This document shows positions 134-2,337 of a DNA stretch of 2,337 nt, one piece after another. The position numbers and the translations under genes were made by a program. Below the pieces are notes generated by a model that searched no databases, was not told where the DNA came from, and saw only the letters and a program-made list of their open reading frames with translations. Every line of letters begins with the position of its first letter. Position 1 is the stretch's first letter. Source of the stretch: Escherichia coli (GTDB lineage Bacteria > Pseudomonadota > Gammaproteobacteria > Enterobacterales > Enterobacteriaceae); the NCBI RefSeq assembly GCF_024298765.1, contig NZ_CP101220.1. One strand, given 5' to 3'.

Positions 134-559
134 ATGACTAAAAATAAGCGTAGCGGTTCAGAAGTACGGCAGAGGACTAAGGTTATCACCCTTAGAGTAA
201 ATAACAGAATCGCAAACGAAATCAGACGGCGAGCGAAGAGCGAAGGGCTGACTATTTCAGAATATATAAGGACAACAAGCTTAAATAATGAAATAAAACA
301 GCGCGTTCCTTCCAGATATTTAGATGAATTAATCCAACTTGGTCGGATGCAGAAGAAATTATTTGATAAAGGGAAGAGACCGAAGGACAAAGAGTATCTG
401 GATGTGATGCATAAAATAATTTCACTTTGTGCTGAAATGAAAGAAGTAACACAGCGAATTTCTGATATATATAAAAAAATGGATTTAATAAAAGAAGAAA
501 TAAAAGCAATAAAAAAAATACATAAAAATAAATACCCAGGTTCCAACTTATTTAATTGA
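134..559 (+). CDS. mobC: MobC-family ribbon-helix-helix relaxosome accessory (plasmid mobilization) protein, 141 aa from ATG 134; same frame is open to window start (alternative starts TTG 11, ATG 23)
   Basis: ORF-track frame 11..559. GGAGA at 120-124 sits 9 nt before ATG 134. Translation contains RTKVITLRVNNRIANEIRRRAKSEGLTISEYIRTTSL, matching the MobC-type RHH pattern (basic N-terminus, beta-strand, then helices with a G-L-[ST]-x-S-E-Y-[IL]-R motif), followed by a Lys/Glu-rich probable coiled-coil tail. Family assignment is from motif recall, not a search. Confidence 0.55.
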   Translation: MTKNKRSGSEVRQRTKVITLRVNNRIANEIRRRAKSEGLTISEYIRTTSLNNEIKQRVPSRYLDELIQLGRMQKKLFDKGKRPKDKEYLDVMHKIISLCAEMKEVTQRISDIYKKMDLIKEEIKAIKKIHKNKYPGSNLFN

Positions 560-567
560 GCAGAACA

Positions 568-595
568 TAGGTCTTCATAAAAATTTAAAGACCTA
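568..595. terminator. Perfect 8-bp inverted repeat TAGGTCTT-N12-AAGACCTA between the convergent mobC-like and rep-like genes; possible bidirectional terminator or protein-binding site
   Basis: Arms 568-575 and 588-595, loop 576-587. Sits in the 89-bp gap between the two convergent stop codons. No strong U-tract on either side, so terminator function is uncertain. Confidence 0.25.
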
Positions 596-648
596 TAATA
601 GAATTAGCGACATTTTGTTTTATCGAAATCTTTTACAATCATAAGAAA

Positions 649-1068
649 TTAATCCGTTTTTTTCGGGGCTATCGTCACTGTTGAATCAATCCCTTCATTA
701 CTGTAAGTTGTTGTCCATACTATCTTTTGTACTTTCGCCCAATCAACTTTAACTGCGTATTTTTTATTAACCAAAAATTCATTTCTGGCTATTCTAGAAA
801 TTAAACATGACTCAATCAGTTGAGACACATTATTATTAAATGTTTGTGGTTTAATTGAATGTTCTGATAAAAACTTTTCTTTGGTTCTTGGTCCAAATGA
901 AACAACATTATCAGTATTCATATTAGCAAGCATGAACGTAAAAATTTTGTATTGCGTTGCTGATAGCCCTTTAACACGGCATAAATCACGGATATACAGC
1001 TTCACGAACTCCGGCTCTTCCAAAATTACGCCAGTTTTTTGATCTAAAAATTTCGCTCCCATTCTCAC
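649..1068 (-). CDS. Small winged-helix-like DNA-binding protein (139 aa); putative iteron-binding replication initiator or copy-control/origin-binding protein
   Basis: ORF-track ORF 649..1068 (-). SD-like GAGGTGAGA lies just upstream of the start on the minus strand; a second in-frame ATG at 1062 is a possible alternative start. Start codon is about 100 bp from the phased iteron array. Sequence pattern (LSATQYKIFTFMLANM ... FNNNVSQLIESCLISRIARNEF) resembles helix-turn-helix plus wing seen in Rep-initiator N-terminal domains. Function inferred from context; protein is short for a classical Rep. Confidence 0.5.
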   Translation of the reverse strand: MRMGAKFLDQKTGVILEEPEFVKLYIRDLCRVKGLSATQYKIFTFMLANMNTDNVVSFGPRTKEKFLSEHSIKPQTFNNNVSQLIESCLISRIARNEFLVNKKYAVKVDWAKVQKIVWTTTYSNEGIDSTVTIAPKKTD

Positions 1069-1091
1069 CTCGCAGGTAATTTAGTTACCGT

Positions 1092-1120
1092 TTTATCGGT
1101 ATCTTATGTATGTTCCACAA
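1092..1120 (-). promoter_or_regulatory. Candidate sigma70-type promoter for the rep-like gene (minus strand -35 TTGTGG at 1115-1120, 17-bp spacer, -10 GATAAA at 1092-1097)
   Basis: Hexamers read on the minus strand; both are imperfect. Location between the iterons/dyads and the start codon fits an autoregulated rep promoter. Weak. Confidence 0.2.
1111..1119 (+). promoter_or_regulatory. DnaA-box-like 9-mer TGTTCCACA (two mismatches to TTATCCACA)
   Basis: Sequence match only. Position next to iterons is typical for iteron-type origins. A degenerate 9-mer like this can occur by chance. Confidence 0.2.
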
Positions 1121-1163
1121 CCGAGTAAATACTTTTTTTCCGGTATTTGATTAGCAACAAAAA

Positions 1164-1267: not shown

Positions 1268-1363
1268 AGTTTGCCTCTAGGCCTTGTCACACCTGATTTT
1301 CCTATCTGTCTGTGAATCTATCTTAGATCTCGTGCGTAAGTGCACTATGCCAATACTGGTTCC

Positions 1364-1430
1364 CTTCCGCTTCCTCGCCCACTCGCGAGCCTAGCGGCTC
1401 GGTCGCTGGGGCTGCGGCGAGCGGTGCCAC
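1364..1430 (+). other. ColE1/pMB1-type origin-flanking conserved segment, probably a PriA-dependent primosome assembly site (n'-pas / single-strand initiation signal)
   Basis: Window CTTCCGCTTCCTCGCCCACT...GCTCGGTCG...CTGCGGCGAGCGGT versus remembered pBR322/pUC CTTCCGCTTCCTCGCTCACTGACTCGCTGCGCTCGGTCGTTCGGCTGCGGCGAGCGGTATCAGC. Exact blocks of 15 nt (1364-1378) and 14 nt (1412-1425) are shared. Contains hairpin CGAGCC-tagc-GGCTCG (1386-1401). Assignment of this pBR322 region to the pas is from memory. Confidence 0.55.
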
Positions 1431-1905
1431 CTCTCGCATATCGTTGACGATCCCGATTTGATCTCAGGCGATCGAGTCGCTGGCCACCGGTTAAACGCGC
1501 TCAAAGCCTCCCAGACGCACAAAACGCGGGTTAAATGCCCGTCAGGGCATGGAAGGCGCGAAAAACGCTTACAGAGGTTTTCAGAAGGTTAGGCGCGCCG
1601 ATACCCCTAACCAGGGGCTTTCAGGTCGCTAGGAACCGCGCCAGCCCCCTGCAAGGCCCATTTGCACGGAACAGACAGCCACTCGGTTGGTAGGTGGTCG
1701 TAGACCGTCGGTGTTACAGCGATGGGGGTCTGGGGTTCTCCCCAGACGGTTTCCGGTTGCGCTCAAGGCGCTGCCGGAACCGTGGCGGCTTCGATGGTGA
1801 AGGGTGAGCGCGTTTCCAAGAGGTTTTCCAGGCAAGCTATGACTGAACTGAACAGATTGAACGAGGAGGAAACGCGCTCAGACGCTTTGTAGCGCGCTTT
1901 TCTGT
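1431..1905. other. GC-rich, ORF-free, hairpin-dense segment; candidate ColE1-like RNA-primed origin/regulatory RNA region (RNA II preprimer and antisense RNA I analog), or another structured noncoding RNA
   Basis: Sharp rise in GC relative to flanking AT-rich genes. Only ORF is a 68-aa minus-strand Arg/Pro/Gly-rich one typical of GC-rich noncoding DNA. Hairpins seen: ATGCCC-gtca-GGGCAT (1535-1550), CCCCT-aacc-AGGGG (1604-1617), 8-bp stem 1728-1735/1740-1747 with loop TTCT, CCGG..GCGC-tcaag-GCGC..CCGG (1753-1777). Order of motifs loosely parallels pUC ori (e.g. GATACC followed by a CCAGG/CCTGG-type hairpin). No clean RNA II-like promoter was found. Confidence 0.35.
1868..1902 (+). terminator. 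Intrinsic-terminator-like hairpin with T-rich tail (stem CGCGCT 1873-1878 / AGCGCG 1891-1896, 12-nt loop, then CTTTTCT)
   Basis: Seen directly on the + strand at the 3' edge of the GC-rich block. Could be the terminator of an RNA I-like antisense RNA or of another + strand transcript. Loop is fairly large and the U-tract is interrupted. Confidence 0.35.
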
Positions 1906-2337
1906 GTCAGGCAAGTTTGTTGTGTCTTTTGCCTTTCAGGTTGTTAGCAGCTGGCGGAGCACTGCACGGGGATTAATGCTCCCATTGCTAGGATGAAATA
2001 AAGATTAGGAGCGAAGTTAAGTTATATTTTTAATATATAAACGCGATATCAATAACTCACATAGTTATATTTTATGCATATGCTACCATCTTGCTCTTTT
2101 GCCTCCTGCTCTCTGGACGAATCCCGCATTACCAACAGGCAATGGATTATATAACCAAGAAGATCTAATCTTTATTCCTCTAATAATCCACAAACGACAG
2201 ACAACAAAGACATCAATTAATTCGGTGTTATTTATTAAATAACAAGCAATAATTTTTAAAATCTGTGTAAATAATATTGAATGAAGCATCATTTTTTTGT
2301 ATCAGAAATACCAGGTTACGACGCGGTATTTTATTTT

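Follow-up and report, generated by a model that had tools for sequence, protein, structure and literature searches.

A short RepL-family protein as the probable replication initiator of a 2337-bp Escherichia coli plasmid

Which element starts the replication of a 2337-bp plasmid from Escherichia coli, and is the small protein encoded at 649-1068 its initiator? The window, by which we mean the whole 2337-bp stretch of DNA analysed here, is a complete small E. coli plasmid: the records NZ_CP080145.1, NZ_CP075712.1 and NZ_CP051705.1 (pSCU-125-5) are each 2337 bp long and match it at 100%. In PLSDB it is typed as Col(MG828), non-mobilizable. Two open reading frames have support on this plasmid, the one at 649-1068, here called rep, and mobA, which encodes a ribbon-helix-helix relaxosome accessory protein (NF041264, 94 bits). 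A preliminary description had taken the former as the only candidate initiator, and this held up, since mobA is the only other family-supported frame and Rfam, searched at E<=1, finds no RNAI- or RNAII-type RNA in the window. The same gene content is found in a 2188-bp sibling plasmid (L016; loci compared with the window carry L numbers), where mobA is again the sole other annotated gene, and rep is the only replication candidate on the 2.2-2.4-kb plasmids that carry it. Of 5426 complete E. coli genomes, 11 have the rep cassette, plasmid-borne every time, and the 11 records are 2.19-2.35 kb long.

The frame at 649-1068 is a real gene. It is present as first described, with 139 codons and a GTG start on the minus strand in the list of open reading frames, and a search of 5.8 billion proteins returned 91 homologues of conserved length at 47-99% identity. 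The full-length ones are nearly all 131-143 aa long and start mostly at the Met equivalent to ATG 1062. Their sources are Escherichia, Arsenophonus, Providencia, Photobacterium, Vibrio and metagenomes, with hosts in the Enterobacterales and Vibrionaceae. RefSeq annotates a protein of 137 aa (WP_028132811.1). Starting at GTG 1068 would make the protein two codons longer, and this GTG falls inside a Shine-Dalgarno GAGG (1071-1068); the minus strand around the start reads ...CCTGCGAGGTGAGAATGGGA. Judged by these features, the start of rep is probably ATG 1062, giving 137 aa, rather than GTG 1068. The coding features of the plasmid are as follows.

134-559, plus strand: mobA, with its ATG at 134 placed by comparison with a sibling record
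649-1062, minus strand: repL-type gene (rep), 137 codons plus stop (649-651), ATG at 1062, from the RefSeq CDS, homologues and profiles
1068-1071, minus strand: Shine-Dalgarno GAGG, 5 nt ahead of ATG 1062, read from the sequence

The plasmid carries mobA and no relaxase gene, so any transfer would need a relaxase in trans; an oriT was not located. Between the convergent mobA and rep genes there is an A+T-rich inverted repeat, ATAGGTCTT-N12-AAGACCTAT (window 566-598), which may be a bidirectional terminator; the terminator scan made no call at this repeat.

To which family does the protein belong? Scanned as a single sequence, in both the 139-aa and the 137-aa form, it matched zero Pfam families in hmmscan even at E<=10. 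The single sequence gave nothing in NCBIfam at E<=1 and no match in PHROGs, and a search of the PDB by sequence profile returned chance-level matches only. Because the single sequence matches no Pfam, NCBIfam or PHROGs family, the gene had been labelled 'hypothetical protein' and the preliminary description could not recognise its family. At the level of profiles the family is recognisable. In an alignment of 46 short-clade members, 47-82% identical to the query (A1), PF05732 (RepL) is matched by 28 members at E<=0.001 and by 36 at E<=0.1. A profile of the clade, searched against 1.84 billion cluster representatives, found relatives in 890 clusters of 50% sequence identity with E<=0.001, and in 232 with E<=1e-10. 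A second alignment contained 48 typical RepL proteins of 150-190 aa (A2), of which 43 are PF05732-positive, and hhalign joined A1 to A2 with 99.9% probability and an E of 1.3e-37 across residues 3-137. The A2 profile scored the window protein at 111 bits and the RepL proteins of pSN2 and pIM13 at 39-40 bits, these last two sequences being machine-read from a PDF (supplement 2 of PMC2831885) and possibly containing errors. Moreover, BLASTP against the RepL of a sibling plasmid (L002) gave an E of 8e-12, tblastn against plasmids matched RepL-annotated genes in Bacillus, Streptococcus (S. mutans) and Aeromonas, and NCBI already gives the name 'replication/maintenance protein RepL' to the same or 95-99%-identical proteins. 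A profile comparison had been proposed as a way to detect a confident match to some unrelated family; the match is to a replication family, RepL, instead.

By these comparisons the window protein is a short member of RepL (PF05732). As neither Pfam nor NCBIfam matches the sequence on its own, membership rests on profile-level and transitive evidence. [quoted passage not shown] PF01051 (Rep_3) is likewise matched by neither the query nor any clade member. What is new here is only an uncharacterised clade that escapes the single-sequence models of Pfam and NCBIfam; otherwise the protein is an ordinary member of a known family. The assignment corrects the 'hypothetical protein' annotation. Scanned by itself, the window protein escapes both databases tried, Pfam and NCBIfam. 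Initiators of the RepL type are frequent on the smallest plasmids, in Gram-positive as well as in Gram-negative bacteria.

The preliminary description had also called the protein unusually small and had suggested, among other roles, a minimal initiator with a single winged-helix domain. Small size is in fact normal in RepL: the median length is 169 aa among the best 150 of the 890 relatives, and the RepL of pSN2 is of ~18 kDa (PMC5703833). The minimal initiator, on the other hand, is backed by the RepL profiles, by an AlphaFold2 model and by the adjoining iterons, so that this part of the interpretation stands, while the unrecognised family and the unusual size do not. The model, built with alignment A1, has a mean pLDDT of 70, with block means of 83-92 over residues 31-100 and values <50 in the motif region 11-22. 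It predicts one winged helix, not two, made of helix 35-46, strand 53-55, helix 58-67, a recognition helix at 72-84 (PQTFNNNVSQLIE) and a wing at 88-98. Helix 18-30 bears the sequence FVKLY, and a C-terminal beta-hairpin (113-132) is modelled with lower confidence. The best structural matches of the model are MarR- and Crp-type winged-helix transcription factors.

The N-terminal helix carries a motif found family-wide, EPxFVKxY, here E16-P17-x3-K21-x-Y23. Residues E16, P17, K21, Y23 and W108 are invariant in both A1 and A2, and Tyr23 is a candidate nucleophile. Compared with typical RepL proteins, the short clade lacks ~20 N-terminal residues and an 11-residue insert between D-x2-TGE and EPxFVKxY. 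The short enterobacterial clade resembles a RepL protein trimmed to near its conserved core and placed beside a very regular origin, and it offers a convenient minimal model of how a single winged helix starts replication.

In the orientation of the gene, the region upstream of rep contains, in this order, a single-strand initiation site (ssi), a short motif, the iterons, two half-sites, the promoter, an operator-like palindrome, the Shine-Dalgarno sequence and the ATG.

556-1357: exchangeable replication cassette (rep, operator, iterons), A+T-rich relative to the backbone
1086-1101, minus strand: operator-like palindrome TACCGATAAAACGGTA, with the same 5-nt arms as the iteron core, abutting the putative -10; a presumed operator
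1101-1129, minus strand: putative rep promoter, -35 TTTACT (1129-1124), 17-nt spacer, -10 TAAGAT (1106-1101), read by eye
1146-1140 and 1177-1171, minus strand: two iteron half-sites ATACCGG inside an A+T-rich spacer (1140-1177)
1184-1264: four iterons, core CCGCT(G/C)AGCGGTA, 22-bp period
1275-1286, minus strand: short motif CAAGGCCTAGAG, just upstream of the iterons
1362-1433, minus strand (the rep-sense strand): ssi of the ColE1/pBR322 primosome-assembly-site type, with ends ACCGCTCGCCGCAG...GAGGAAGCGGAA

The iteron cores begin at 1186, 1208, 1230 and 1252 on the plus strand, an exact 22-bp period, with the first copy forming a perfect palindrome of 15 bp, TACCGCTGAGCGGTA. The core has 7 strand-wise matches in the window against 0.01 expected, and 0 of 200 shuffles had as many. 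For ATACCG, 9 sites were counted where 0.76 would be expected, and 7 of them fall within 1097-1265. The copies at 46-51 and 2324-2329 were rejected as Rep sites, as they lie in backbone common to plasmids with other rep genes. The only Rfam match at E<=1, to mir-9428 at 1187-1263 on the minus strand, at 23 bits against a gathering score of 81, was likewise set aside as an artefact of the palindromic iteron array. In the promoter scan the rep promoter, with 8 of 12 matches, fell below the threshold and was not called; we keep it as putative on the strength of its conservation in homologous loci. A block AAAGTATTTAC(A/T) recurs upstream of rep in L004, L011 and L012, and palindromes equivalent to that at 1086-1101, with arms matched to the local iterons, stand beside the rep promoter in L007, L009 and L011.

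Motifs similar to CAAGGCCTAGAG occupy the same position in L005 and L006 (CAAGGGCTAGAG), with a weaker one in L004. In L005, L006 and the window a motif CAAGGnCTAGAG is found after the ssi and before the repeats, and the primers used for pIGRK contain GGCTAGAG; CAAGGCCTAGAG may correspond to the 'conserved region' (CR) that pHW126-like origins have. The ends of the ssi align with what we take to be the primosome assembly site segment of pUC19/pBR322. As single-stranded DNA the ssi folds no better than shuffled sequences (z -1.0 and -0.7 for the two strands), and because the folding is unexceptional the call rests on sequence similarity and conserved position. No DnaA box was found near the iterons, the single box with one mismatch (2184) being at chance level and far from the origin.

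Comparison across plasmids indicates that rep and its iterons move together. Two sibling plasmids, L002 (NZ_AP027663.1) and L003 (NZ_CP075673.1), align to the window except over 556-1357 (to 1331 in L003). Their sequence in this slot encodes other RepL proteins, of 165 and 179 aa, which are 24% identical to the window protein or not alignable with it pairwise and which both belong to RepL by profile. Each sibling has three repeats of its own, whose starts are 22 bp apart in L002 and 44 and 23 bp apart in L003. Eight replicons with several different backbones agree in the order ssi, iterons, operator, rep, and wherever an ssi is present (8 of 8 replicons, on several unrelated backbones) it is found on the upstream side of rep and oriented alike.

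The iteron arms vary with the protein. In the Arsenophonus plasmid paPv18 (68% identity) and in a metagenomic locus (~70%) the repeats are TACCGCTGAGCGGT at 22 bp, and variants of the form TACCG-N5-GCGGTA are found at the locus of a homologue named after Providencia (62%). The arms are ATCAC...GTGAT with the Photobacterium homologue (60%) and GTCAC...GTGAC with that of Vibrio (54%), and an arm-matched operator lies by the promoter in each of the Providencia, Photobacterium and Vibrio loci. Arms are thus TACCG at 62-72% identity and (A/G)TCAC at 54-60%. Among six loci, the switch from TACCG to (A/G)TCAC in L007 and L009 accompanies changes in recognition-helix residues 73 and 79-80 (window ~823-846), from Q to T/S and from V-S to I-K. 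Residues 73 and 79-80 are therefore candidate specificity determinants, although six loci make this only suggestive.

On the rep-sense strand, the Vibrio locus and metagenomic loci without a ColE1-type ssi have a motif AAGCGTAG(C/T)GCG upstream of their iterons; this motif may be an ssi of another type. It is common to three loci:

L007, 1078, rep-sense strand: motif AAGCGTAG(C/T)GCG
L012, 277, rep-sense strand: the same motif
L013, 258, rep-sense strand: the same motif

Two further small E. coli plasmids, L005 (CP115340.1, 2372 bp) and L006 (CP099049.1, 3433 bp), are typed MOBV. Their RepL proteins, which score 130-136 bits against the RepL profile, are annotated 'hypothetical'. Both plasmids share the ssi of the window and bear four to five perfect iterons of 22 bp, AATCGTACTCACCTCAAGTACT. 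Under-annotation of RepL replicons seems to be widespread in E. coli.

The backbone contains a conserved module (1332-1790), consisting of the ColE1-pas-like ssi and ~350 bp at 56-66% G+C. It is 87-95% identical in ~600 small enterobacterial plasmids with different small HTH genes, and its GC-rich part has no Rfam match. Plasmids of 1.3-1.55 kb with this module (pJJ1886_1, pAVS0193-D) encode a different small HTH protein that is not RepL by profiles. The 158-aa HTH protein of the 1.5-kb plasmids sharing the module was considered as a RepL candidate and rejected, as the profiles were negative. The 1332-1790 module is probably what the Col(MG828) replicon type is based on, and that type covers plasmids with differing initiators. 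The 2188-bp sibling (L016, pMB9698_7) shares with the window the ssi, the GC-rich module and, at ~95% identity, the rep cassette, but has unrelated sequence in place of window 1792-2337; this segment is therefore dispensable for maintenance.

We consider it likely that rep encodes the replication initiator of the plasmid, a short RepL protein with a single winged helix, acting as follows. Rep dimers would bind the palindromic cores of the four iterons, two helical turns apart (1184-1264) and hence on one face of the DNA, together with the two half-sites. Rep bound to the related palindrome over its own promoter (1086-1101) would repress its own synthesis. Binding at the iterons would lead to leading-strand initiation in the adjacent origin, and the PriA-type ssi (1362-1433, on the rep-sense strand) would start the complementary strand. 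The part of the GC-rich module beside the ssi (1440-1790) could also contribute to replication. That Rep binds as dimers, represses itself or nicks DNA, and that Y23 has a part in this, is our inference.

How would the origin fire? By analogy with relatives, we lean tentatively, and with slightly less than even confidence, to a nick-primed, asymmetric, rolling-circle-like start. The position and fixed orientation of the ssi, the lack of DnaA boxes and the precedent in relatives favour it over melting, and what keeps it tentative is that the protein has no HUH or Rep_trans signature and that the nicking by RepM is partly non-specific (preprint, 10.1101/2022.12.05.519187). Iteron-driven melting is a possible and somewhat less likely alternative: in this theta mode, Rep on the phased iterons would bend and melt the A+T-rich spacer and load the host helicase and primosome, the ssi serving as primosome entry site and no nick being made. 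A mixture of both modes takes up the remainder of our expectation. Iterons, an operator palindrome and a winged-helix fold are hallmarks of theta initiators, and the absence of an HUH or Rep_trans motif from the window protein agrees with melting. However, the iterons have no DnaA box near them, and the ssi stands immediately upstream of the origin, in fixed orientation and on the rep-sense strand, which is the usual place of a rolling-circle single-strand origin. A recent preprint groups RepL with initiators that have a single winged helix, alongside families of theta type (10.1101/2024.09.03.610885), and 2D gels of pIGMS31 showed rolling-circle and theta intermediates, including bubble and Y arcs (10.1101/2022.12.05.519187). 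Against this, pSN2-type plasmids, which are little studied, are classed as rolling-circle (PMC5703833), and the Rep of pHW126 relaxes supercoiled DNA in vitro (PMC2831885). Within the rolling-circle-like start, we think it unlikely that the 137-aa single-winged-helix protein is a complete initiator whose EPxFVKxY helix nicks strand-specifically through Tyr23 without an HUH or Rep_trans fold. If it were, RepL would be the smallest class of rolling-circle nuclease, and the occurrence of rolling-circle and theta intermediates from one family would be explained.

Two other roles would take initiation away from the protein. It might be only a transcriptional or copy-number regulator, with the backbone module (1332-1790) initiating by host enzymes in a ColE1-like way, which we hold to be very improbable; the preliminary description had put forward a similar idea, an accessory to an RNA-primed origin. 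The wide distribution of the module beside different small HTH genes speaks for such a role, as do the modelled resemblance to MarR- and Crp-type regulators and the position of the module, which lies on the side of the ssi that presumably corresponds to the ColE1 preprimer region relative to its own pas in the pBR322 map. Yet no RNAI or RNAII is matched in Rfam even at E<=1, the gene travels with its own iterons, and a small HTH protein gene is kept on every module-bearing plasmid examined, down to 1306 bp. Moreover, L004 (an Arsenophonus plasmid), L005, L006, L007, L009 and L011 carry RepL genes and phased iterons and, compared by reading the sequences alone, showed no extended similarity to the window; and the RepL family is defined by replication genes. 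The second role, a ParR- or TubR-like centromere-binding protein with the repeats as partition site, was also among the first suggestions, and we give it almost no credence. Its sole support is that small DNA-binding proteins coating phased repeats are typical of partition adaptors, whereas the plasmid has no partition NTPase and, at 2337 bp, no room for one, the homology is to RepL and not to partition proteins, and the gene moves, together with its iterons, as a cassette that is the sole replication candidate on several 2.2-2.4-kb plasmids.

MarR- and Crp-type factors, the best structural matches, resemble the window protein also in that it probably binds palindromes as a dimer. Rep_3 initiators (RepE of F, pi of R6K, RepA of pPS10) share with the window the origin repeats and a sequence-related operator palindrome, a winged-helix head that reads DNA and, probably, autorepression. 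However, they have two winged helices, where the window protein is predicted to have one and has no PF01051 match; each of the window repeats is palindromic, which points to dimers, not monomers, at the origin; and the window origin, unlike the Rep_3 type, has no DnaA boxes nearby. Plasmid pIGWZ12 was rejected as a relative, its initiator belonging to Rep_3 (PMC6856555).

The pSN2 family (pSN2, pIM13, pE5; PF05732) is homologous to the window protein by profile. Its RepL proteins are likewise small, with a single HTH or winged helix, the D-x2-TGE and FVK-x-Y motifs and no HUH or Rep_trans motifs, and are encoded beside the origin on very small plasmids. They differ in length, ~158 aa against 137 aa, and the window clade, unlike the pSN2 family, is found in Gram-negative hosts. 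The origins also differ, the window having four 22-bp-phased palindromic iterons and a ColE1-type ssi and pSN2 a dso and ssoA (PMC5703833).

In sequence, the Rep proteins of the pHW126-like replicons (pHW126, pIGRK, pIGMS31) appear to be further away. With these sequences machine-read from a PDF and possibly containing errors, the clade and RepL profiles gave no match to those of pHW126 and pIGRK and 15 bits to RepM of pIGMS31. The FVK-x-Y motif of the window protein is replaced in pHW126 and pIGRK (supplement 2 of PMC2831885). Their Rep proteins are longer than the window protein, with 201 aa in RepM of pIGMS31 and ~30 kDa, His tag included, in RepR of pIGRK, and their N-termini are long and variable; the Rep of pIGRK has in addition a coiled coil at its C-terminus. 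The N-terminus of the window clade, by contrast, is very short. An N-terminally truncated pIGRK Rep is a negative regulator unable to initiate (PMC6854812). In these distant relatives, replication requires Rep in trans; Rep binds both the repeats and the operator, represses its own promoter and, in vitro, nicks DNA. Plasmids can do without the ssi but then form multimers (PMC6854812; PMC2831885; 10.1101/2022.12.05.519187). Like the window, the pHW126-like replicons combine a low-G+C replication region with a MarR-like winged helix in Rep. Their layout of ssi, a conserved region of ~20 bp, four 20-bp repeats with 2-bp spacers, operator repeats and rep (PMC6854812; 10.1101/2022.12.05.519187) follows the same module order as that of the window, in which CAAGGCCTAGAG is a candidate for the conserved region.
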